Positions 1 through 8,094 of a DNA stretch of 58,152 nt are shown here, one piece after another; position 1 is the first letter of the stretch, and every line of letters starts with the position of its first letter. The notes under the pieces are model-generated. The model was not told where the DNA came from and made no database searches. It saw only the letters and a list, made by a program, of their open reading frames with translations. The position numbers and the translations under genes were made by a program. The DNA comes from a virus (Duplodnaviria; Caudoviricetes): the IMG/VR virus record IMGVR_UViG_3300042988_001268, positions 1-58,152 of that record; one strand, given 5' to 3'.

Positions 1-36
1 GTCCTTAAGCGCTTAATCCCTGCGCACCTGGCAGGT

Positions 37-43
37 AGGACCC
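37..43 (-). other. cosQ-like heptamer GGGTCCT next to palindromes at 5-16 and 26-36; possible cos region
   Basis: Minus strand reads GGGTCCT (lambda cosQ sequence), same strand as the GpA-type terminase; TTAAGCGCTTAA and ACCTG-G-CAGGT palindromes nearby. Confidence 0.35.
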
Positions 44-79
44 ACGATTTTAGCGCCCGCATCTCGAGGCGCTGAATTT

Positions 80-111
80 TTTACTTTACGTCAACGCGCG
101 CCGTATATAAG
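80..111 (+). promoter_or_regulatory. Candidate sigma70-type early promoter
   Basis: T-rich tract, TTTACT/TTTACG (-35-like) and TATATAAG (-10-like) just upstream of the first pseudoknot leader. Confidence 0.45.
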
Positions 112-120
112 GCGAGGGGC

Positions 121-167
121 AGAGGGAACGGCCGCCCCTCTCTAGCATAGGCCAACCGAACGAAAGG
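121..167 (+). ncRNA. Pseudoknot-SD leader copy 1 (weak)
   Basis: AGAGGG/CCCTCT stem, 9-nt loop AACGGCCGC, partner GGCC 150-153, GAAAGG 162-167. Confidence 0.5.
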
Positions 168-174
168 CAAGGCA

Positions 175-402
175 ATGGCCCTTAATCTCTCCACCCTCGC
201 AAATCGCGCAGTCGACTCTATCGGCTATGCCTGCGCGGCGATCCTGTTTGTGGCGGTTATCGGCTGGCTCCCGGCCGGCATGATTGGCGCCGCCCTGGAA
301 TTCGCGGGAACGCCCGAAGGGCCAGCAATGGCTATTGGCTTTGCTGCCGTGGCTGTTTGGGGTTTTGTGAAGGCGCCCGCCGCGCTTGAAGGCCTGCTTT
401 AA
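175..402 (+). CDS. Small membrane protein (2 TM)
   Basis: GAAAGG SD, two hydrophobic segments. Confidence 0.75.
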   Translation: MALNLSTLANRAVDSIGYACAAILFVAVIGWLPAGMIGAALEFAGTPEGPAMAIGFAAVAVWGFVKAPAALEGLL

Positions 403-411
403 TCCCCTACG

Positions 412-461
412 GCGCGCCGCCTGCCAATCGGCGCGCATCTCTCCCCTTGGCAATCGAAAGG
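412..461 (+). ncRNA. Pseudoknot-SD leader copy 2
   Basis: GCGCGCCG/CGGCGCGC stem, loop CCTGCCAAT, partner TTGGCA 447-452, GAAAGG 456-461. Confidence 0.7.
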
Positions 462-469
462 GCCGGATC

Positions 470-763
470 ATGGCTATTCTCGCAAAGGTATATCGCAACG
501 GCATTAGCGCCACGGCGCCCGATGCAATGGGCGCGCGCGCCGTCACGATTGAAGCGGCGCCCGCGCCTTGCTTTACTGGCACGCTAGGCAAAGCGGCCGC
601 CTATCTAGAGCGCCTGCCGATCGGTCAATCGGTTGAGGTGCGCTATTACCGGAACGGGAAGTTTGCCGGTTTGCGCTCTTGTATGAACAAGCCAGCGCTA
701 TGGGATAGCTTGCGCGATGGCGCGCGGCGCCGTTCCATCCCTAGCATTCGGGCGGCCGCCTAA
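470..763 (+). CDS. Hypothetical protein
   Basis: ATG at 470 after SD; TAATG coupling to next gene. Confidence 0.7.
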   Translation: MAILAKVYRNGISATAPDAMGARAVTIEAAPAPCFTGTLGKAAAYLERLPIGQSVEVRYYRNGKFAGLRSCMNKPALWDSLRDGARRRSIPSIRAAA

Positions 764-915
764 TGTCCGCCGCGCTTCACCTTCTCGGCGCTTGCGTCCA
801 GCCCTTTGCCATTGTGCTGGGTGCCTATGCCCTAGCAGGCATCTGCAGGGACTGGCGCCGGGCTATCCCGACAATTCGCGCAATCCGCGCGCAGCTTGAA
901 AGGTTGAATCCATGA
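763..915 (+). CDS. 50-aa hydrophobic protein (not in ORF track)
   Basis: MSAALHLLGACVQPFAIVLGAYALAG...; TAATG overlap at start and ATGA overlap at end. Confidence 0.65.
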   Translation: MSAALHLLGACVQPFAIVLGAYALAGICRDWRRAIPTIRAIRAQLERLNP

Positions 916-1139
916 ACGTCCGGATTTTCATCGGCGCCGCCGCTTATGCCTGTATTGAGGAAAGCGGCCGGAAAACTGATATTCTGCTTTCCCCTGGAAA
1001 GGGCCCGATTGCCTCGCTTCGGGAATATGCGGAAAGCGAAAGGGCTCGAGCGCTTCGGATTCTGGAAATGGCGGCTCTTGCTGATAGGGCGGCCGATTGC
1101 CTGGAAAAGGAAAAGGCCGAATCTCCCATTGCAGCATAG
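912..1139 (+). CDS. Hypothetical protein
   Basis: GAAAGG SD, ATGA overlap. Confidence 0.7.
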   Translation: MNVRIFIGAAAYACIEESGRKTDILLSPGKGPIASLREYAESERARALRILEMAALADRAADCLEKEKAESPIAA

Positions 1140-1211
1140 GCCGAAACGCGCGGCCGATGTGTCGCGCGTCGCAAGGGATTGTGCGCCCCTTGCCTGACGA
1201 TGGCAGCACAA
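1140..1211 (+). ncRNA. Type II hammerhead ribozyme with loop I pseudoknot (HH1; leader copy 3)
   Basis: GCC-GAAA-CGCGCG..CGCGCG-TC^-GCAAGGG-ATTGTGCGC-CCCTTGC-CTGACGA-T-GGC-A-GCACAA; predicted cleavage after C1170. Confidence 0.9.
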
Positions 1212-1226
1212 GCGAAGGAAAGAGCC

Positions 1227-1676
1227 ATGGATAAGATAGGGCAGGCAATCGCCCGCGCGGCAGATGGACTCGAGCGCGGCTTTTGGTGGGAAGATACGCG
1301 CGGCGATAAGCTGGCTTGCGGCTGGCTTGTGGGCGCCTGTTTTTCGCCGGGGCCCGATGGCGGATATACGGCGCGCGCTGCTTTTGGCGAATTCTGGGCG
1401 CCCGCGGAATATCGCAATGATGGCGCGCGCGTATCGGAATCAGCCGATGAAAAGGGGCAGCGCCTAGGGCGCGCGGCCGCCGTTGCTGCAATGCGCGAAT
1501 TCGCCGCTATGGCGCCGATCGATCGCGCCGCGCGCGCCGCCTATGTAGAAGATTGCCGGCGCCATCCGCTTTATAATGACGGCCGGCCGCGCCGCGCTTG
1601 GGAAGCGCTGGGCGAAATTGAGCACGAATCGTGGCGGCGCAATCCATCGCCGCGCGACTGGAGCGCTGCAGCATGA
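1227..1676 (+). CDS. Hypothetical protein
   Basis: GAAGGA SD directly after HH1. Confidence 0.75.
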   Translation: MDKIGQAIARAADGLERGFWWEDTRGDKLACGWLVGACFSPGPDGGYTARAAFGEFWAPAEYRNDGARVSESADEKGQRLGRAAAVAAMREFAAMAPIDRAARAAYVEDCRRHPLYNDGRPRRAWEALGEIEHESWRRNPSPRDWSAAA

Positions 1677-1858
1677 TCGCGCCCGCTTTCATCGCTGGCC
1701 AGCTTGTCACCGTGGCGCCGCCCATGACGCCACATTGCCGGCATAGCGGCCGGATCATCGCCCGCGCCCGCAATGGCCACGGATGGCGCGTCGAATTCGA
1801 TGCTTGGGGGATACGTTGCCGGGAGACCATGCCCGAACGGTGCATTGCACCCGCCTAG
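1673..1858 (+). CDS. Small hypothetical protein (SH3/KOW-like pattern)
   Basis: ATGA overlap; F..GQLVTV...GRII.......RVEFD pattern. Confidence 0.6.
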   Translation: MIAPAFIAGQLVTVAPPMTPHCRHSGRIIARARNGHGWRVEFDAWGIRCRETMPERCIAPA

Positions 1859-1944
1859 GGCCCTATCCCGGTTTACCGTGGCGTGCGCCTGGCTCTTGCC
1901 CGGCGCCGCCTTCCCCTATCCCGGTTTTCCGTCCGGGGAAGCGG

Positions 1945-2010
1945 AAGGCGCAAGCCTTAGCCGATCGGCATTGCCCGCGCCGATCGGACCCTATCAGGGC
2001 AAGCGAAAGG
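1945..2010 (+). ncRNA. AGGC/GCCT hairpin plus pseudoknot-SD leader copy 4
   Basis: AAGGC-GCAA-GCCTT; CCGATCGGC/GCCGATCGG stem, loop ATTGCCCGC, partner GGGCAA 1997-2002, GAAAGG. Confidence 0.75.
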
Positions 2011-2018
2011 ATAGACCA

Positions 2019-2171
2019 ATGCCGATTGACTATGCCGCGCCCATGATGCGCGATCGCTCCCGATTCCCGGCCGCCAAGGGCCGCGCCATGACGCGCCGCG
2101 CCGCGCGCCGGGAAAAGTCCGCCCGCTTGTTTCTTGCGCTGGCTTTCCCGGCCGAATTTGGGGAGCGTTGA
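2019..2171 (+). CDS. Small basic hypothetical protein
   Basis: ATG 2019 after GAAAGGA. Confidence 0.65.
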   Translation: MPIDYAAPMMRDRSRFPAAKGRAMTRRAARREKSARLFLALAFPAEFGER

Positions 2172-2174
2172 GCC

Positions 2175-2444
2175 ATGATCGATCTAGAAAAGAACGTGCC
2201 CGGCGTCGGTTGGATATTTATCCAGCCGCTTAGCCCTATCCCTATTGCAGATCGGGCCGCCTATCTTTCCGCTACCTATGGCAAGCGCGCCGCACAATTC
2301 CGGATTGTCGAGCGCGCCACTATGTCGCCAGCACGAATCCGCGCCATGGATCTAGCCGATTGGAAAGCCATCGGCCGCCCTTCCGCGCCTGTCCCTAGCG
2401 CTGCATCTGCAATCATTGCCAAATTGCGGCGGGAGCGCGGCTAA
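2175..2444 (+). CDS. Hypothetical protein
   Basis: GGGAG SD, operon context. Confidence 0.65.
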   Translation: MIDLEKNVPGVGWIFIQPLSPIPIADRAAYLSATYGKRAAQFRIVERATMSPARIRAMDLADWKAIGRPSAPVPSAASAIIAKLRRERG

Positions 2445-2620
2445 TGGGAGAGGCAACGCATATTCGCTTGCAGTACCTGCCAAGCCCTACCGCGCGCGTG
2501 TGGCGCAATTCGTCCCTGACAATGTGGGCGGCCGGCCGGGACAATATGGCGGCCACGGCCGAACGGCTGAAAGCACAAGAGGGCTGGCACGATTGGCGGA
2601 TTGTCCCGCACAATCCCTAG
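2444..2620 (+). CDS. 58-aa hypothetical protein (not in ORF track)
   Basis: TAATG coupling; MGEATHIRLQYLPSP...WRIVPHNP. Confidence 0.6.
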   Translation: MGEATHIRLQYLPSPTARVWRNSSLTMWAAGRDNMAATAERLKAQEGWHDWRIVPHNP

Positions 2621-2693
2621 CCCCTACCCGCGGCGCGCTGCAGATCGGCGCGCCGCCTATCCTGCCCCCTTCCCGGATTCACGGGGGGCGCGA

Positions 2694-2763
2694 TAGGCGC
2701 TAAGCCTAAACCCTACCGCGCGCGCCCGTCGCGGCCGGGGAACCTACCAGGGCACACGAAAGG
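2694..2763 (+). ncRNA. AGGC/GCCT hairpin plus pseudoknot-SD leader copy 5
   Basis: TAGGC-GCTAA-GCCTA; CCGCG/CGCGG stem, loop CGCGCCCGT, partner GGGCAC 2750-2755, GAAAGG. Confidence 0.7.
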
Positions 2764-2770
2764 TAAACCA

Positions 2771-4105
2771 ATGGTTACGATTACCGCGACTTATAGCCCG
2801 GAAGACAACAAACTTCGCCTTTATGCGAGCTCCCGCCTTGACGCGGAGACATTCGCGCGGGTGAAGGCCGCCGGCTTTGCATGGGCGCCCCGGCAAGAGC
2901 TTTTCGTTTCCCCCAAGTGGACGCCGGAGCGGGAAGACCTGGCAACGGAGCTTGCCGGCGATATCGAGCCGGAGGAAATGACGCTTGCGGAGCGCGCCGC
3001 CCTGAAGGCGGAGCGGCTCGAGGGCCTGGCGCACAAGCGGCACGGTGAGGCAAACGCCTTTGCCCGGCGCGCGGATGAATTGTCGCAGGCGTTCTATATG
3101 GGCCAGCCGATCCTTATCGGGCACCATTCCGAGCGGAAGGCCCGGAAGACGCAAGAGCGCATGCAGGCGGCAAGCGACAAATCCGCGAAGCTGGCCAGCG
3201 CGGCCAATTATTGGCTCTATCGCGCAACCGGGGTTGAGCACTTCGCCAACATGAAAAACAACCCCCGCGTGCGGGCAAACCGGATCAAGACCCTATTAGC
3301 GGAATTGCGGGACCTGCAGCGCACAATTAACGAGGCGCACAAGGGGCTTGAGCTTTGGGAACGGTTCGACACGCCGGAAAAAATCATGTGGGCTATCTGC
3401 AACCTGAACGGGGACGCGCTGGCCATTCCCTGGGGGACCTATAGCAAGCGCGAAGAAGTCAACACGGCCGAGCTCAAGGCGGAATGCATCGCGCGTTTGC
3501 GGGCGCGGATCGATAGCCCAAAGCGCCGCCGCTGGATCGAGCACATTCTAAACCGCCTTGCGTTCGAGCGGTCTTTGCTGGGTCCGGTGGAGCGTTACGA
3601 GGGGGAGCTAACCCCTGTCATCCTGCAGGCCTTCGCCCGGGAGCATGGCGCCGACAAGCCGAAGGCAACCGAGATTGAGCCCGGGAGCTTTGAGCTTGAA
3701 AGCGCCGTGCCGCTTCCCCTTCACCTGGCAAGCGGGCGCTGGCTTGAATTGGACGCGGAAGGCTGGCGCGATCTTATGCAGGGCGTGGGGTACGAGGTGC
3801 CCGAGAAAAAGGCCGCCCTACCGCCGATTTTGAACGTGGAAGCGGAAACGCTTTATTCCCCTTCCCGGGCATTCGGGCAGCGCGGAGAGGCGGAAGCCTG
3901 GCGCGTGGTGAAGGTTACCAAGGCGCAGCTTGACGCGGTGCACAACGACGCCCGCGGGGTCCGGCCTAGCGCTTGCGGTCAATTCCGCTTTCGCGTTGCC
4001 AGCGCCCGGCACCTGAAAATTGAGGGCGCGAATCCCTGGGAATATGTGGCGGTTTTCGTCACTGATTCCAAGGTGCACCCCATGCCGGAAAGCATGGCGG
4101 CATGA
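2771..4105 (+). CDS. DUF3560-family protein
   Basis: N-terminus TATYSPEDNKLRLYAS and GQPILIGHHSERKARK motif typical of this family. Confidence 0.8.
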   Translation: MVTITATYSPEDNKLRLYASSRLDAETFARVKAAGFAWAPRQELFVSPKWTPEREDLATELAGDIEPEEMTLAERAALKAERLEGLAHKRHGEANAFARRADELSQAFYMGQPILIGHHSERKARKTQERMQAASDKSAKLASAANYWLYRATGVEHFANMKNNPRVRANRIKTLLAELRDLQRTINEAHKGLELWERFDTPEKIMWAICNLNGDALAIPWGTYSKREEVNTAELKAECIARLRARIDSPKRRRWIEHILNRLAFERSLLGPVERYEGELTPVILQAFAREHGADKPKATEIEPGSFELESAVPLPLHLASGRWLELDAEGWRDLMQGVGYEVPEKKAALPPILNVEAETLYSPSRAFGQRGEAEAWRVVKVTKAQLDAVHNDARGVRPSACGQFRFRVASARHLKIEGANPWEYVAVFVTDSKVHPMPESMAA

Positions 4106-4704
4106 GGCCAGATTGCTATCGGATGGCCAAGCGGCCCGCGTTCCTCCCGGTCAAGCGCCGGGAGGACTTCGCCCCGGTGGAGGCAAAGGCTCCGCCGGAG
4201 ATTGTGGCAGTCGATCGCGCAACGGAATGCCACGTTACCCCGCCGGAAGTTGCGGCGCGGATGGTGCGTTACCTGGGGGAGACCTGCGACCGCCTGACCC
4301 TCGAGCCAAGCGCGGGGACAGGGAACCTAAGCCGGGCCTTGATCGAGTCCGGGCACTCGCCTTGCGAGCTTGTCCAGGTAGAGCGGCACATTCGCCTAAG
4401 CCACGGTCTCCGCCAATTCGGATCGCTGATAAACGAGTGCTTTCTAGAGTATGCGGAGCGGGCCCGGGGCAAGGTCGAATTTCCCCGCGCGATCATGAAT
4501 CCGCCGTTTTCAGAGGTGCGGAAACATATTGCGGCGGCCCGCTCGCTTATGGGCAGGCACGGGCACCCGGTGCCGCCGGTTCTTGTCGCGCTTGTGCCGG
4601 TGACATTCCAGGCGGACGGAATGGAAACGCTAGAGCATTTGCCGGCGGATACGTTCGCGCATGCCCGGGTGAACACGAAAATAATTCGGATTTACGGGGA
4701 TTGA
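4102..4704 (+). CDS. SAM-dependent (N6-adenine-type) methyltransferase
   Basis: TPPEVA, LEPSAGTGNL (motif I), MNPPF (motif IV); ATGA overlap. Confidence 0.85.
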   Translation: MRPDCYRMAKRPAFLPVKRREDFAPVEAKAPPEIVAVDRATECHVTPPEVAARMVRYLGETCDRLTLEPSAGTGNLSRALIESGHSPCELVQVERHIRLSHGLRQFGSLINECFLEYAERARGKVEFPRAIMNPPFSEVRKHIAAARSLMGRHGHPVPPVLVALVPVTFQADGMETLEHLPADTFAHARVNTKIIRIYGD

Positions 4705-4783
4705 CGGGCGGGCGGGGCTCCGGTCCCGCCTCCTACCGTGGGAGCCTGGCCCCCTACCGTGGGAAACGGGCGGGGCTTCCATG

Positions 4784-4854
4784 ATAGGCAAGAGCCTATG
4801 ACCGGCGCGGCATTGCCCGGGCGCGTCGGGGATGATGAAAGGGCGGAAGAAAGG
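4784..4854 (+). ncRNA. AGGC/GCCT hairpin plus pseudoknot-SD leader copy 6
   Basis: ATAGGC-AAGA-GCCTAT; CCGGCGCG/CGCGTCGG stem, loop ATTGCCCGG, partner GGGCGG 4841-4846, GAAAGG. Confidence 0.7.
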
Positions 4855-4864
4855 AATTGAGACA

Positions 4865-5272
4865 ATGGCAGGACTTACCTTTGCCCGCGCGCTGGAAATT
4901 ACGTGCGAGCTCGCCAGCGATAACGTGATCGATGACCCCGACATGATCGAGGAACAAGAGGAGCAGGAAGCGGCGATTGCCATGATCGAGAGCGAAGCCC
5001 CCGCCATGCTGGCGGCGCTGCGCGATCTGGTCGCCGGCAACTATGGCCAGCCGTCCGGCGTGACGGTCCCCGCGCTTGATCCTGCCCGCGCCATCCTCGC
5101 CCGGATCGACGGCACCCCTAGCGGTGAAGCCGTGGGGGCTATCGGGGATGCGCAAGCGAAGGCCGCCCGGTTGCGCGCCGATGCGCTGGCGCTGGATACC
5201 GGAATGGACCCCGCCCTAGTGCGCGAATTGCACGCGGAAGCCGATAGGATCGAAAGCGGGGGGGAGGGCTGA
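4865..5272 (+). CDS. Acidic hypothetical protein
   Basis: ATG 4865 after GAAAGGA. Confidence 0.7.
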   Translation: MAGLTFARALEITCELASDNVIDDPDMIEEQEEQEAAIAMIESEAPAMLAALRDLVAGNYGQPSGVTVPALDPARAILARIDGTPSGEAVGAIGDAQAKAARLRADALALDTGMDPALVRELHAEADRIESGGEG

Positions 5273-5275
5273 GCA

Positions 5276-5470
5276 ATGGCCGCGCACGTCATGGCGCACC
5301 GTGGCCCCGGTTCCATCTTTGGCCGCGCTTCCGCCCCGTTGAAGGGGCCGGACGGCGGACCGCTGGAATTCCCCACCCTAGCCGAAGCGCAGGCCGAAGC
5401 GGCGCGGCTCAATGCCCGCGCAACTCCGAACGTCCACTATCAGGCAGAGGAGGGCCCCCCTACCGCGTGA
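5276..5470 (+). CDS. Hypothetical protein
   Basis: GGAGG SD, operon context. Confidence 0.7.
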   Translation: MAAHVMAHRGPGSIFGRASAPLKGPDGGPLEFPTLAEAQAEAARLNARATPNVHYQAEEGPPTA

Positions 5471-5474
5471 GACA

Positions 5475-5550
5475 GGCGAAACGCGCCCCTAGCCCCGCTT
5501 GGGGGCGCGTCCGGCGGGCTTGCTCATCCCGCCGCTGATGAGCCGAGCAA
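5475..5550 (+). ncRNA. Type II hammerhead ribozyme with loop I pseudoknot (HH2; leader copy 7)
   Basis: GGC-GAAA-CGCGCCCC..GGGGCGCG-TC^-CGGCGGG-CTTGCTCAT-CCCGCCG-CTGATGA-GCC-GAGCAA; predicted cleavage after C5511. Confidence 0.93.
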
Positions 5551-5564
5551 ATGAAGGAATCGAC

Positions 5565-6161
5565 ATGCTGCAATCTGCATTGACCGCCAAGGGCACCGGC
5601 TACCACGGGAGCCCCGCAACCGCATCCTGGCCGGGGACCGAGCGTTGCACTGCGTTCGACCCGTTCGACATTCTGGCGAACCCGCTGGGCGGTGACACGG
5701 CCGCGGCGAGGGAAAGCCGGGTTTTCGCGTCCAAGTCCGGAGGGGCTGGCACGACATACGTAAGCCATGAATTCTACCTGATGCGGCGCAAGGATGCGCG
5801 GCCGGGCGATGTCGCGTTCTATGTGGCGGTGCATCACGGCGGCGGCCGGCAAGTCTGGGCGCTTTCGTCCTGCTATCACTATTCCGAGGAGACGATTGCG
5901 GCGCTCCTCGCCATGCCGGAGCGGGCGCTTTATTCGCTGCTGCATGGGATCGTGGCGGCGCTCGATGATACCAAGCGCGCCGCCGAGCGCGACACGGCGG
6001 ACGAATGGCGCCGGGCTACCGTGGGCAAGCGCGTTAAGGTTTCGCGCCAGCCGACGAAGGGCCGGGCCTTTGTCTGGATCGAACCGGAGCGGCAAGAGGG
6101 CGAGAGCGAGGCGCAACACAAGCTGCGCTGTAGCCTGGCTAAGCCGTCCGGGGTTCGCTGA
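5565..6161 (+). CDS. Hypothetical protein
   Basis: GAAGGA SD directly after HH2. Confidence 0.75.
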   Translation: MLQSALTAKGTGYHGSPATASWPGTERCTAFDPFDILANPLGGDTAAARESRVFASKSGGAGTTYVSHEFYLMRRKDARPGDVAFYVAVHHGGGRQVWALSSCYHYSEETIAALLAMPERALYSLLHGIVAALDDTKRAAERDTADEWRRATVGKRVKVSRQPTKGRAFVWIEPERQEGESEAQHKLRCSLAKPSGVR

Positions 6162-6220
6162 ACCCTACCCGCATTCACCGGCGCGGCTATCATCGCCGCA
6201 CCGAATCGGAGTGAAACAAC

Positions 6221-6505
6221 ATGACCGGAACAATCGGAATCGAATGGACGAACGGCCGCCCGCACAATGGCGCTGAAGCCGATGAGGAACGCGCGGAAGC
6301 TGCAGCCCTCGCCAGCCTGCAGCGCGCCGGGGTGACTCCTGAAGCGGCGCACGCGGCATATATGGCACAATGGCTTGAATATGACGACGAGGGGGCGATG
6401 CACGGGGACGCGCTGGCATGGATTGCCGCCCGCGATGCAGCGAATCTGGCCGCGACCGAGGGATGGCATAACCCGGACGGGGCGCACGTCTCGATCTACC
6501 TCTAA
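6221..6505 (+). CDS. Acidic hypothetical protein
   Basis: GGAG SD. Confidence 0.7.
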   Translation: MTGTIGIEWTNGRPHNGAEADEERAEAAALASLQRAGVTPEAAHAAYMAQWLEYDDEGAMHGDALAWIAARDAANLAATEGWHNPDGAHVSIYL

Positions 6506-6564
6506 CCGGCGCGGCGGCCTAGTCCGCCCGCCTTCCCTGCACCGGCCCTATCCCGGTTCATGGG

Positions 6565-6627
6565 AGGCGCACCGCCTACCGTTCCGGCTTGCCCGTCCGG
6601 AGCGCGTCAACCTGGGCGAATGAAGGG
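6565..6627 (+). ncRNA. AGGC/GCCT hairpin plus pseudoknot-SD leader copy 8
   Basis: AGGC-GCACC-GCCT; CGTTCCGG/CCGGAGCG stem, loop CTTGCCCGT, partner GGGCGA 6614-6619, GAAGGG. Confidence 0.72.
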
Positions 6628-6634
6628 AATGACC

Positions 6635-8092
6635 ATGCTTTGCGATCTTTTCAGCGTGACAACCGACATCAAGGACAAGCTGGGGAACGGAACCCGGCAG
6701 GCGAACGAAGCCGAGGCGAAAGCCTATGCCGACTTTCTGCGGCGGCGGCGCGATCTGCCCGACCTGGGCCATTGCGACCTGCACATCCTGTCAATCGGCG
6801 CTGGCCGACGCGGCGGGTTCATCTATCAGGGCGCGACGTTCGGGCGCCGGATTGCGGCCCCGCACAACATCAAGCAGCCGGGCGGGGAATTCCGGCATGT
6901 TCCGGCGGAATACGAGAACGGCGCGTTTTCCGTCATCTTCCCCGGCCACGATATGCACCGGGCCCGCGTCAAGTTCGAGGAACTGGACGAAGCCGGCGAG
7001 ACGGTGAAGGCCAGCACCCTACCAGTGGAGCCGAAAAAGGGCGGCGTGATCTGGTCGCGCGAGGACGTGCGCAAGGCCGCCGGCAAGGTGGAGAAGCCGG
7101 GCAAGGTGAAGGCCGCGCCGGCGGCGGACCCTATCCCGGTCGCGTGCGACCCGGCCCCTACCGTGGAAATGGCCACCCAGGAGCCGCAGGAGCGCGCCGA
7201 GGAGCCTCCCGCACCCCATGCCTATCCGGAGCCTGTGAAGGCGCTGAGCGAGGCCGAGGCGGGCGAGAGCGAGGCAATCGAACCTTACGATGCTATCGTA
7301 AAGTTGCCGGAGGTGGACCCCATCGCCGAACTTCTCGCCCGGGTGGAAGCGCTCGAGGCGCGGGTGGAGGCCCTACCGGCGGATATGGTGGCGCCCCCTA
7401 TCGCGGCTGCAGGACGGCCGGCGCGCACGGTGGCGCACGAGCGGGCAATTCGCCGGGCATGGGCAGAGCGGAAGGCGCGGCGGCGCTCCGATGCCATTTC
7501 GGCGGATCGCTTCAGCCAGCTTGTCGAGACGAGCGGGAAGCTGAGCACGGCGGAAAGCAATCTCCGCATGGGCCAGGCCCAGTATGACGGGCTCAAGGCG
7601 GATCTTGCCGAAGCGCGAACCCGGCTGCAGGCCAAGCAGGAATTGCTCGACGCCGAAAACGAGAACTACCGGGCTCTTGCTAGGCTGCTGGACCGGATCG
7701 CCGCCAAGCGCCGCCGCGCCGTGCTGAATGCCCGCATCCTGCAAACGCGGCTTTGGAGCGAATGCGCGCTGGTCGACCGATACCGGGGAGAGGTGAAGGC
7801 CGCCAAGGTGGAGGCGGAAGGCGCGCAGGGACGGGCGGACATGGCCCAGGCCGAGCTCGCCAGGATCAAGCGCGACATGGCGGACCCATCGCAGCCGGAA
7901 CGGGCCAACGACATCGCCCGCTTGATCCAGGAGCGGGACGCGGCGCGAACGGCGGCCGCTGCAACCGATGCCCGCAACCGGGCGCTGCAGAGCGCGGTGG
8001 ATGGGCTGGCCGACAAGTTCGAGGGCATGGTATCCCGCGTGAGCCGTGCCGAGGCGGCGATGCGTGCGGCCGGGCTGACGTTGGCGGCGTAG
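6635..8092 (+). CDS. Large hypothetical protein with Pro/Glu linker and coiled-coil C-terminus
   Basis: Long ORF, SD GAAGGGA, heptad-like C-terminal half. Confidence 0.8.
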   Translation: MLCDLFSVTTDIKDKLGNGTRQANEAEAKAYADFLRRRRDLPDLGHCDLHILSIGAGRRGGFIYQGATFGRRIAAPHNIKQPGGEFRHVPAEYENGAFSVIFPGHDMHRARVKFEELDEAGETVKASTLPVEPKKGGVIWSREDVRKAAGKVEKPGKVKAAPAADPIPVACDPAPTVEMATQEPQERAEEPPAPHAYPEPVKALSEAEAGESEAIEPYDAIVKLPEVDPIAELLARVEALEARVEALPADMVAPPIAAAGRPARTVAHERAIRRAWAERKARRRSDAISADRFSQLVETSGKLSTAESNLRMGQAQYDGLKADLAEARTRLQAKQELLDAENENYRALARLLDRIAAKRRRAVLNARILQTRLWSECALVDRYRGEVKAAKVEAEGAQGRADMAQAELARIKRDMADPSQPERANDIARLIQERDAARTAAAATDARNRALQSAVDGLADKFEGMVSRVSRAEAAMRAAGLTLAA

Positions 8093-8094
8093 GG

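Follow-up and report, generated by a model that had tools for sequence, protein, structure and literature searches.

We identified a conserved folded RNA cassette in each of four gaps (spacers A-D) between early genes of a sphingomonad-type temperate phage, within a stretch of 58,152 nucleotides that constitutes IMG/VR record IMGVR_UViG_3300042988_001268 and is referred to here as the window. The small AGGC-N4/5-GCCU hairpin found in these spacers represents one of the conformers available to a conserved three-strand element within this modular intergenic cassette. At the same gene boundaries this phage group also uses the type II hammerhead module, to which the cassette is an alternative that contains no hammerhead. 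Our tentative reading, to which we assign a probability of roughly 0.4, is that the cassette is a bistable RNA "punctuation" element which would be cut by a host RNase and then refold. It builds on the observed anatomy of the cassette, its conservation, the covariation of two of its helices, the slot that it has in common with hammerheads and its lack of a hammerhead core.

Architecture and distribution of the cassette

The cassette runs 5′ to 3′ from the stop codon through a G+C-rich hairpin (T), an imperfect hairpin of ~40-45 nt (P0), the strand X′′, stem I, a GGGC pseudoknot strand, the Shine-Dalgarno sequence (SD) and AUG (Table 1). Three strands are central to it: X (CGCCU..., which lies at the 3′ edge of T or overlaps it), X′ (...AGGCG) and X′′ (GCCU). 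X′ has two mutually competing partners, pairing with X to close the base of P0 or with X′′ to form the small hairpin. A search of Rfam found no matching family for the cassette at E ≤ 10.

Table 1 Cassette elements, hammerheads and related modules in the window
Feature	Coordinates	Strand	Details
Stem I/pseudoknot-like module	412..452	+	Loop CCTGCCAAT, TTGGCA; precedes gene at 470
Type II hammerhead 1	1139..1212	+	Rfam Hammerhead_II; TTGTGC with GCACAA; ATG at 1227
Spacer A T hairpin	1885..1906	+	G+C-rich, no U run, abuts 5′ side of P0; constrained and MFE folds
Spacer A P0, lower stem X:X′	1907..1950	+	Contains CCCTATCCCGGTTTT
Spacer A AGGC hairpin (X′:X′′)	1945..1958	+	AAGGC GCAA GCCTT
Spacer A stem I and pseudoknot	1961..2002	+	Stem 1961-1969/1979-1987, loop ATTGCCCGC
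Spacer A pseudoknot strand	1997-2002	+	GGGCAA, then SD; ATG at 2019
Spacer B T hairpin	2632..2654	+	Fold
Spacer B P0, X:X′	2654..2699	+	Fold, covariation
Spacer B AGGC hairpin	2694..2708	+	TAGGC GCTAA GCCTA
Spacer B stem I and pseudoknot	2711..2755	+	Core 2716-2720/2730-2734, extension CCC 2711-2713, loop CGCGCCCGT
Spacer B pseudoknot strand	2750-2755	+	GGGCAC; ATG at 2771
Spacer C T hairpin	4706..4734	+	Fold
Spacer C P0 hairpin	4737..4783	+	Abuts AGGC arm, not overlapping; fold
Spacer C AGGC hairpin	4784..4799	+	ATAGGC AAGA GCCTAT
Spacer C stem I and pseudoknot	4802..4846	+	Stem 4802-4809/4822-4829, loop GCATTGCCCGGG
Spacer C pseudoknot strand	4841-4846	+	GGGCGG; ATG at 4865
Type II hammerhead 2	5474..5551	+	Rfam Hammerhead_II; TTGCTC with GAGCAA; ATG at 5565
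Spacer D T hairpin	6508..6532	+	4-nt overlap with X; fold
Spacer D P0, X:X′	6529..6569	+	Contains CCCTATCCCGGTTC; fold, covariation
Spacer D AGGC hairpin	6565..6577	+	AGGCG CAC CGCCT
Spacer D stem I and pseudoknot	6580..6619	+	Stem 6580-6587/6597-6604, loop CTTGCCCGT
Spacer D pseudoknot strand	6614-6619	+	GGGCGA; ATG at 6635
Module E, stem I and pseudoknot	8778..8811	+	Loop ATTGCCCGA, GGGCAG; ATG at 8824

The hairpin is conserved in relatives, with 13 further copies on seven contigs, comprising three IMG/VR proviruses and four metagenome contigs (two copies on G001, one on G005, three on G161, one on L275, two on L289, three on L276 and one on L261). Together with the four in the window this gives 17 copies on eight contigs, although many are paralogues or close homologues and the counts are therefore not independent events. 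No convincing copy was found in 151 Sphingomonadaceae genomes and 48 prophage loci.

Some of these copies raise the question of whether the conserved feature is one of DNA, either a recombination boundary of phage modules or a palindromic protein site, the RNA folds being incidental to it. In G005 the spacer is chimeric, its left side matching G001_C1 (59/65) and its right side G001_D1 (60/65), and the junction lies inside the 12-nt hairpin. Identical 12-mers are also found in more than one setting, with three occurrences of AGGCAAGAGCCT (spacer C of the window, G161 7862 and G161 11453) and five of AGGCGCAAGCCT. A conserved RNA element would be expected to host recombination anyway, however, and an arm separation that varies from 4 to 5 bases (3-5 counting inner pairs) suits a dimeric DNA site poorly. 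X:X′, stem I and one hairpin include G.U pairs, and each of the 17 copies is on the coding strand directly 5′ of the SD and start codon. We give a DNA-level explanation a very slim chance of being correct.

The small AGGC/GCCU hairpin

All four hairpins originally predicted are present in the sequence at the positions given. Within the window there are 10 matches to the pattern AGGCN{4,5}GCCT, compared with a mean of 2.88 (sd 1.74) in dinucleotide shuffles, none of 100 of which reached 10. Seven of the ten matches fall within positions 1-6725, and three of these (3048, 3888 and 6714) are intragenic, all in frame as GAG GCN NNN GCC. As these three may be codon-driven the bare pattern is only moderately unusual, and it is the position of the four spacer hairpins that is the non-chance part. 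The proposed gap of about 2 nt to the next hairpin, stem I, is exactly 2 nt in spacers A, C and D; in spacer B it is 2 nt when the CCC/GGG extension is counted but 8 nt to the core stem. Across the 17 copies the distance ranges from 1 to 8 nt, with the small hairpin on the 5′ side and preceded by GGA, GAU, GGG, UGA, UCU or GAG.

Of the 17 copies, 15 have an AGGC/GCCU stem, the exceptions being G161_1 (GGGC/GCCU, with a G.U pair) and M7 (AGGC/GCCG, with an A.G mismatch), and loops vary in both sequence and length. No compensatory change was seen in this stem among the 17 copies, three of its four pairs being invariant and one varying on one side only. A possible fifth pair forms in seven copies, about chance level, so the conservation of X′′ could serve something besides pairing with X′.

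A short stem (4-6 bp) with such loops might suggest nut/put-type antitermination, in which the T hairpins would terminate or pause transcription and the AGGC hairpin would act as a boxB-like site bound by a protein or by polymerase. Nine of the 17 loops are GNRA or GNRA-like (five GCAA and one each of GAAA, GCUAA, GCAAA and GUAGA), with GNRA accounting for six of the 13 four-base loops, each closed by a C-G pair, and a strong hairpin precedes the P0/AGGC unit in every copy inspected. The remaining eight loops (AAGA, AACC, GCCA, GCUG, GCACC) are not GNRA-like, however, and no U run follows T. The operons carry three to four sites whereas processive antitermination needs only one (lambda, HK022), and we found no N-like family among 19 early proteins, although N-type proteins are small and diverse. 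We regard antitermination as highly unlikely.

Alternative pairing of X′ with an upstream strand

The AGGC strand also forms the 3′ base of P0, where its closing partner is the upstream CGCCU strand. The original prediction had proposed such upstream pairing at all four spacers. This was confirmed in spacer A, where the helix extends to 8 bp (CGCCTTCC at 1907-1914 with GGAAGGCG at 1943-1950), and in spacer B, where CGCCTATC at 2654-2661 pairs with GATAGGCG at 2692-2699. Spacer D offers a better partner than the one named, CGCCTTCC at 6529-6536 with GGGAGGCG at 6562-6569 including one G.U. Spacer C is weak, with 5 contiguous bp and three of the four AGGC bases paired upstream in the constrained fold; its AGGC arm barely overlaps P0.

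X:X′ pairing covaries. Anchoring the pair counts on AGGC, position -1 is U:A in 5 copies, A:U in 8, U:G in 1 and C:G in 1; position -2 is C:G in 5, U:A in 9, G:C in 1 and U:G in 1; and position -3 is C:G in 12 and A:U in 2. A contiguous X:X′ helix of at least 7 bp is found in 11/17 copies as against 5/80 chance pattern matches in unrelated viral contigs. Segments of 55 nt spanning P0 have a mean folding z of -3.46 relative to dinucleotide shuffles, and constrained folds predict 14-18 pairs with 1x1 or small internal loops, the AGGC bases being paired upstream in all 17. Sense and antisense fold about equally well (sense lower in 6/17, mean difference +0.48 kcal/mol), so that fold energy alone cannot assign the strand.

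The hairpin and P0-closed states are predicted to be near-isoenergetic: the energy of the hairpin state minus that of the P0-closed state ranges from -4.6 to +6.4 kcal/mol and lies within 2.6 in 15 of 17 copies, with P0 much more stable than the hairpin in G001_D1 (+6.4 kcal/mol). Switch-like alternative pairing, backed by these energies and by the upstream compensatory changes, is thus the best-supported feature of the original prediction.

Such a balance could also belong to a regulatory switch that involves no cleavage. Here a chain of overlapping helices (T 5′/3′ arms; T 3′/X:X′; X′:X′′) would sense a signal, which might be temperature, a protein bound to the P0 sequence CCCUAUCCCGGUU or a ribosome that stops 1-25 nt upstream of T, and would set the presentation of the pseudoknot and SD, tuning translation of the next gene. 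Consistent with this, X lies at or overlaps the T hairpin by up to 3-4 nt in spacers A, B and D, T begins 1-3 nt after the stop codon in spacers C and D, several copies have a conserved CCCUAUCCCGGUUY in the apical portion of P0, and in every copy 3-5 nt separate the end of the pseudoknot strand from the SD. However, X′′ has no general complementarity to the SD when compared by eye, X′′:GGGC amounts to only 4 bp with a G.U, and a search of the early genes gave no candidate RNA-binding protein. A switch of this kind would also leave the use of the same slot by hammerheads unexplained, and on balance we think it unlikely.

Stem I, the pseudoknot and the hammerhead slot

All seven modelled pairs of stem I change on both sides, giving a covariation score of 0.489 compared with 0.107 ± 0.026 after shuffling, a score reached by none of 500 shuffles. 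The UGCCC loop can pair with a GGGC strand in the 3′ tail in 17/17 copies, a pseudoknot helix that cannot be scored in a covariance model. The retained stem I and pseudoknot are probably a functional 5′UTR unit in their own right. Module E has neither the AGGC hairpin nor a hammerhead core.

The two type II hammerheads of the window (40.3 and 42.4 bits with the Rfam covariance model) have the same arrangement of stem I, pseudoknot and SD as spacers A-D, and the sequence of stem I, the pseudoknot and the SD-proximal region is common to both hammerheads and spacers A and D. Relatives provide a homologous comparison: in the slot 3′ of one methyltransferase gene, L006, L007 and L009 have a hammerhead (identified by eye), and the window, L003, L004 and L275 have the cassette. 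The hairpins therefore do fill a slot used elsewhere by hammerheads, as first proposed, both within the window and at this position in relatives. The long-standing assumption about type II hammerheads located between prophage genes is that they divide long transcripts into messages the size of a gene. Sister phages that fill the same slot, with the same stem I/pseudoknot/SD unit, using a different structured element devoid of a catalytic core amount to a natural swap experiment, and the job of the hammerhead at this slot can apparently be done by the T/P0/three-strand cassette.

The cassette itself is not a hammerhead, whether of types I-III or of their non-circular permutations. The CUGANGA box (Block C; searched as CTGA.GA) is present in 0/17 copies between -150 and +110 of the hairpin, and the GAAA box expected between stems II and III (Block G) is not in place, most occurrences of GAAA falling at +51 to +63, within the SD region; block definitions follow Eckert et al. 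2023 (PMC10085705). When the four spacers were searched with hammerhead covariance models in small search spaces, no match at E ≤ 10 resulted. The other Rfam ribozymes, among them twister, twister-sister, pistol, hatchet and HDV-like families, were likewise without a match at E ≤ 10, in agreement with the earlier failure to recognise such cores by inspection, and no such family was detected in the relatives' copies at E ≤ 0.01.

New ribozyme classes have previously been found through this kind of association, and the cassette could in principle be a new self-cleaving ribozyme built on the hammerhead stem I and pseudoknot scaffold, with the AGGC/GCCU and UGCCC/GGGC strands as its active site. 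The slot occupied in common with hammerheads, within one genome and at the homologous position in relatives, the unusually invariant paired strands and the absence of an Rfam match would all suit this idea. Against it, linkers and junctions vary in length and sequence and contain no conserved unpaired nucleotides, neither hammerhead box is in place, and the distribution is narrow (8 contigs). The self-cleaving RNA of the original prediction accordingly finds no support, and we consider a new ribozyme very improbable.

Decay of hammerheads into core-less relics, with no function beyond the leftover stem I and pseudoknot, would account for the resemblance of the stem I loop and SD-proximal sequence to those of the window's hammerheads. 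It would also account for an AUGAUGA in spacer C at the place expected for CUGAUGA, and for GCC GAAAC followed by the hairpin in M7, which resembles a hammerhead 5′ half. Relics would be expected to drift, however, whereas the 17 copies retain AGGC, GCCU, X and the architecture of P0 despite complete divergence of their stem I sequences, and P0 and T have no counterpart in hammerhead modules. The likelihood of decay appears minimal.

A proposed model for processing of the early transcript

We infer that the cassette punctuates a long early transcript and is probably cut by a host RNase: P0 would be cleaved either by RNase III on its stem or by RNase E in its U-rich apical loop. The upstream message would then keep the T hairpin at its 3′ end, while the freed X′ would refold onto X′′ as a 5′-terminal hairpin, so that the downstream message would begin with this hairpin beside stem I and the pseudoknot. 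The spacers contain no sigma-70-like promoter and no U-run terminator, which is compatible with one long transcript in need of processing.

The predicted P0 stem falls at the short end of the size range of RNase III stems, which span about 11-22 bp and frequently contain an internal loop, and its lower part covaries. According to Nicholson 2013 (PMC3867540), many cellular RNase III substrates are shorter than about 20 bp, the minimum is about 11 bp, and a cut at an internal loop may leave behind a 3′ hairpin that is stabilising. Type II hammerheads with a loop I-3′ tail pseudoknot were described next to prophage genes by Perreault et al. 2011 (PMC3088659), who propose that these process long transcripts.

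A bolder claim is that the cassette is a self-processing RNA new to science, whether a new ribozyme class on the stem I/pseudoknot scaffold or an X/X′/X′′ strand-exchange processing module, that phages swap with type II hammerheads. We consider this improbable; if true, phages would exchange a self-processing cassette modularly with hammerheads at gene boundaries and, in the processing-module version, strand exchange would be a mechanism for turning one cut into two protected RNA ends. The cassette, with clear covariation in two helices and no entry in Rfam, is small enough for direct tests of self-cleavage, RNase cleavage and conformational switching.

Comparison with known systems

The AGGC hairpin resembles boxB of the lambda nut site in its short stem, GNRA or GNRA-like loop and location in an early phage transcript, but it is the stem rather than the loop that is conserved, about half of the loops are not GNRA-like and no boxA or N homologue was identified. 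Leaders with three or four alternatively pairing strands, such as attenuators and riboswitch platforms, likewise have mutually exclusive overlapping helices of similar stability that are conserved together. The cassette differs from these in having no recognisable ligand domain and in being repeated three to four times per operon; an intrinsic-terminator attenuator was rejected, as no terminator-like hairpin with a U run occurs at any of the four spacers.

Early genes of phage T7 are separated by RNase III processing signals. Like P0, these are imperfect hairpins with small internal loops lying between cistrons of a long early transcript, and in both systems the newly made 3′ end would carry a hairpin. 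With 14-18 bp, P0 is the shorter of the two, its cleavage is putative, and the X′′ recapture strand has no described counterpart in T7.

A further parallel is the type II hammerhead with a loop I-3′ tail pseudoknot (RF02276; Perreault et al. 2011, PMC3088659), which also occupies intergenic slots of prophage early operons, has a hairpin loop that pairs with a strand just downstream and directly before the SD, and carries a second hairpin 1-3 nt 5′ of stem I, at the stem III position. The cassette, unlike the hammerhead, lacks CUGANGA, the GAAA core and stem II; it has in addition T and P0 upstream, and the stem of its 5′ hairpin is invariant and competes with an upstream strand.

Hammerheads and AGGC hairpins share a position ahead of early genes

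Eight genes of the early block in the window are preceded by a common unit, a stem I hairpin and a pseudoknot, which carries a hammerhead core in two cases, an AGGC/GCCU hairpin in four (spacers A-D) and neither in the remaining two. Both window hammerheads combine stem I with a loop I to 3′-tail pseudoknot (UUGUGC with GCACAA; UUGCUC with GAGCAA) of the type II kind described in Perreault et al. 2011 (PMC3088659), the same unit as in the spacers, and between pseudoknot strand and start codon their sequence is similar to spacers A and D. The original prediction, which placed four AGGC hairpins in the slot occupied elsewhere by hammerheads, is therefore correct within the window, and all four were found in the sequence at the positions it gave (see table).

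The pattern AGGCN{4,5}GCCT matches the window 10 times against 2.88 ± 1.74 in shuffles, none of 100 reaching 10. Of the seven matches in the early region, three lie inside genes as in-frame GAG GCN NNN GCC; strong evidence therefore comes not from the bare pattern but from where the spacer copies lie. Each spacer hairpin lies 1-2 nt 5′ of the stem I hairpin (in spacer B, 8 nt from the core stem). The pairing partner of the stem I loop (A)UUGCCCG is GGGCR, located 8-15 nt downstream and 3-5 nt ahead of the SD.

We compared the slot across phages using the spacer that follows the conserved methyltransferase gene in the window and its relatives. It holds the AGGC cassette in the window, two proviruses (L003, L004) and the metagenome contig L275, and in L006, L007 and L009 a type II hammerhead read by eye (GAAAC, CUGAUGA, stem I, pseudoknot), of which only that of L009 passes the Rfam gathering score (L007, 26.4 bits). 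At other loci the spacer is short or contains another hairpin type; L011, L039 and L040 share a further type, a hairpin followed by CCCGTGGGCC; its loop in L011, UUGUC, could pair with GACAA ahead of the SD. No hammerhead was found in the searched regions of cassette-bearing relatives (E ≤ 0.01), and among the contigs examined only the window has hammerhead and cassette together.

The phage is a complete 58,152-bp IMG/VR virus record of ~64 % G+C with lambda-like late genes (portal, gpA-type terminase, capsid E, decoration protein, podophage adaptor, lysozyme). An S24/HTH repressor, a MucR/Ros regulator and an integrase mark it as temperate; no phage RNA polymerase was recognised in the window. 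Its methyltransferase led to relatives that are prophages of Sphingomonas, Sphingobium, Hephaestia and other alphaproteobacteria, and positions 1-8000 gave no match to phage GenBank records (blastn, distant mode). An antitermination element is one rival explanation of the cassette. A consensus scan of the spacers in the early block found neither a sigma-70-like promoter nor a U-run terminator. Positions 1-60 (GTCCTTAAGCGCTTA...GGTAGGACCC) recur at L004 3408-3460, upstream of the early operon of provirus G005; as they adjoin a divergent gene there, the record probably begins at the early control region. Further into the block, the spacer 8093-8339, between a gene end at 8092 and a gene start at 8339, contains tRNA-like pieces including two T-arm-like GGGTTCGAATCCCG sequences (8126-8142, 8208-8224). 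Rfam gave a tRNA match of 28.1 bits at 8168-8232 (cut-off 29) and two partial YrlA (Y RNA-like) matches in this spacer, and ARAGORN called no tRNA; the spacer may hold a processing signal of a different kind.

Coordinates of the early block, hammerheads and AGGC cassette copies
Feature	Location	Strand	Remarks
Small early genes, block	1-10,600	+	Includes DUF3560 protein, NPPF methyltransferase, ATP-dependent ligase
Type II hammerhead 1	1139-1212		Rfam score
Type II hammerhead 2	5474-5551		Rfam score
Spacer A hairpin	1945-1958		AGGC/GCCU
Spacer B hairpin	2694-2708		AGGC/GCCU
Spacer C hairpin	4784-4799		AGGC/GCCU
Spacer D hairpin	6565-6577		AGGC/GCCU
Provirus G001, 2 copies	L003		Loops AACC and GCCA
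Provirus G005, 1 copy	L004		Loop GCAA
Provirus G161, 3 copies	L228/L252		GGGC GCAAA GCCU; AGGC AAGA GCCU; AGGC GUAGA GCCU
Metagenome loci, 7 copies	L275, L289, L276, L261		
G005 recombinant	L004 7090-7223		Compared with L003 3794-3927 and 4227-4360

The cassette is conserved in related phages

Thirteen further, homologous copies of the cassette were found on seven other contigs, giving with the window four a total of 17 copies on 8 contigs. Many of the copies are related, and copy counts overstate independent events. A covariance model of the cassette (R2) was built from seven copies, and true copies score 29-86 bits. Applied to 73 loci (699,385 bases, including 48 GTDB prophage loci) it found nothing convincing beyond its training copies, the only sequences at ≥ 41 bits, with the next best at 21.9. 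Nor did 151 Sphingomonadaceae genomes yield anything convincing; the single match at E ≤ 1e-4 (L103, 34.1 bits) was rejected by eye, and L102 was likewise rejected. On these searches, which sample their collections, the cassette is rare and lineage-restricted within what was searched.

Pattern scans of viral contigs and metagenomes extended the set. CCCTATCCCGG...AGGC..GCCT matched viral contigs 8 times, all by chance judging from context. The looser AGGCN{4,5}GCCTN{6,20}ATTGCCCG matched at least 117 stretches, and the 80 listed are all attributed to chance since none exceeded 22 bits with R2; the known G001 and G005 copies are missing among those listed, so the scan was not exhaustive. A tighter pattern gave 31 stretches, four of them at ≥ 37 bits, namely three known copies and the new L228. 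From the metagenome scan, in which 80 of 87 stretches were examined, we accepted seven copies in four loci (29-75 bits). L322 (32.9 bits), which has AGGC AUCC GCCU and may form stem I and the pseudoknot, was set aside as coding-like sequence with no start codon downstream, and L308, L318, L315, L319 and L256 (24-25 bits) were also set aside.

The AGGC strand has an alternative upstream partner

In every copy the AGGC strand (X′), usually with the next G and 3-8 preceding bases, is complementary to an upstream strand, X, which starts CGCCU and lies at the 3′ edge of T, a G+C-rich hairpin after the stop codon, or overlaps it by 3-4 nt. X:X′ closes P0, a predicted imperfect hairpin of ~40-45 nt with 14-18 pairs and small internal loops, whose predicted outline is nearly identical in most copies. 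The 55-nt segments ending at X′ fold more stably than dinucleotide shuffles (mean z -3.46); in 16/17 copies no more than 11 of 200 shuffles reach so low an energy. Pairs just outside the invariant core covary: counting from AGGC, position -1 is U:A in 5, A:U in 8, U:G in 1 and C:G in 1; position -2 C:G in 5, U:A in 9, G:C in 1 and U:G in 1; position -3 C:G in 12 and A:U in 2 (compare spacer B, CGCCUAUC with GAUAGGCG, and copy M3, CGCCUAGA with UCUAGGCG). A contiguous X:X′ helix of ≥ 7 bp occurs in 11/17 copies versus 5/80 chance pattern matches. Of the helices, the upstream pairing proposed originally is thus the one best supported by sequence comparison.

The competing small hairpin, in which X′ pairs with the downstream strand X″, was assessed in an 18-row alignment fitted to R2, one row lacking the hairpin. 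Its four pairs are 98.6 % paired; three are invariant and the fourth changes in one strand alone (A-U to G.U), so the hairpin is without compensatory support, in contrast to stem I, all seven pairs of which change on both sides in the same test. A fifth pair is present in 7/17 copies, roughly as often as chance would give. That the RNA hairpin is real is favoured by three observations: X″ keeps a fixed 4-5-base distance in 16/17 copies though the flanking stem I sequences have completely diverged, 6 of the 13 loops with four bases are GNRA loops closed by C-G, and one copy preserves pairing through G.U. A boundary acting at the DNA level is a rival to these RNA readings. Sense and antisense strands fold about equally well, and folding energy does not discriminate between them.

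Constrained folding placed the hairpin and P0-closed states within 2.6 kcal/mol of each other in 15/17 copies (range -4.6 to +6.4), spacer C and the G001 copy D1 deviating from this near-isoenergetic pattern, and "switch-like" is accordingly a fair description. A switch operating without cleavage would draw on the same two states, and is a rival to the processing pathway considered below. X″ shows no general complementarity to the SD.

The early region is also rich in the motif CCTAYC (extended, CCCTAYC[G/C]), with 38 plus-strand occurrences in positions 1-10600 versus 9 in the other 47 kb and 32 on the minus strand of the window as a whole. Of the 38, half lie between genes, often directly after stop codons or in hairpin 5′ arms, and the 19 coding copies occupy all three frames. 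Enrichment co-occurs with the AGGC cassette: plus to minus counts of CCCTAYC are 28:8 in the window, 12:2 in L003 and 14:0 in L004, as against 0-4 for the 48 GTDB prophage loci. Both X and X″ appear to belong to this motif, and X′ to its complement. A reading of CCCTATC as a sigma-70 -10 element was rejected given the ~15-nt spacing from TTG-like hexamers and the intragenic location of half the copies.

Cassettes recombine at short conserved strands

The left half of the G005 spacer is of the type of G001 copy C1 (59/65 identical) and the right half of the D1 type (60/65); the halves meet within the 12-nt hairpin, and the gene that separates the two G001 cassettes is lost. Metagenome copy M7 (L276, reverse strand, oriented 1841-1917) has the sequence AGGC GAAA GCC GAAAC, after which comes a hairpin with a loop that pairs with GGGGC. 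It lacks CUGAUGA and looks as if the left half of a P0/AGGC cassette had been joined to a type II hammerhead's 5′ half. These junctions indicate that cassettes and hammerhead modules recombine at short conserved strands, which can explain replacement of one by the other.

Variant arrangements were also seen. In G161, L252 11453-11464 is a third identical AGGCAAGAGCCT 12-mer, at a gene end and followed by CUACC, SD and ATG, without stem I or pseudoknot. A third cassette type with no AGGC hairpin (L003 5556-5689, L004 8452-8606; R2 19-22 bits) reads CCCCUACCG(G/U)GGGAAAC, followed by a variable-loop hairpin (GGGGUGC/GCACCCC), GGAUGAG... and a stem I of CCGGG/CCCGG with loop A(A/G)UGCCUGC.

Known ribozymes and a candidate processing pathway

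No ribozyme family matched the four window spacers at E ≤ 10, in agreement with the original failure to fit them to known cores. The cassette was rejected as a hammerhead, with no Rfam match at E ≤ 10 and CUGANGA in none of 17 copies, an absence that also rules out non-circular hammerhead permutations as defined by Eckert et al. 2023 (PMC10085705). A decayed hammerhead, one that has lost its catalytic core, is a further rival. A new ribozyme, or unrecognised self-cleaving RNA, as originally suggested, is unsupported. The hairpin-stem I linker (1-8 nt) and the 8-15-nt junction after stem I are unconserved, leaving no conserved unpaired core of the self-cleaving kind. Every conserved letter belongs to a strand that pairs and has the form GCCY or RGGC: CGCCU in X, AGGCG in X′, GCCU in X″, UGCCC in loop I and GGGC in the pseudoknot strand. 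An RNase P-type 3′ ACCA after stem I was dismissed by eye as inconsistent across copies. What stands of the earlier interpretation is the switch architecture and the shared slot.

We tentatively favour, at a probability of roughly 0.4, a reading in which a host nuclease would cut in P0 and X′ would refold onto X″. The cut could fall in the P0 stem, RNase III-like; many cellular RNase III substrates are shorter than ~20 bp, with a minimum of ~11 bp (Nicholson 2013, PMC3867540). Alternatively, it could fall in the U-rich apical loop of P0, RNase E-like. Apical loop sequences include GGUUUU, GGUUCA and GGUUUA, which we take to resemble the preference of RNase E. T would be retained as the 3′ hairpin of the upstream RNA, and with X lost X′ would fold onto X″, placing the hairpin at the new 5′ end beside stem I and the pseudoknot. 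Counted against this reading are the small hairpin without covariation, the near-equal folding of sense and antisense strands, the shortness of P0 for RNase III, the deviation of spacer C and of G001 copy D1 from near-equal energies, and the relatedness of many copies.

Hammerhead self-cleavage leaves an upstream RNA ending in stem III and a downstream RNA starting at stem I, and the cassette could arrive at the same end state through a host nuclease. Hammerhead modules, unlike the cassette, are without T and P0. As a structured RNA that had not been catalogued before, the cassette fits best with phage intergenic elements of the RNA-processing or 5′-UTR kind.
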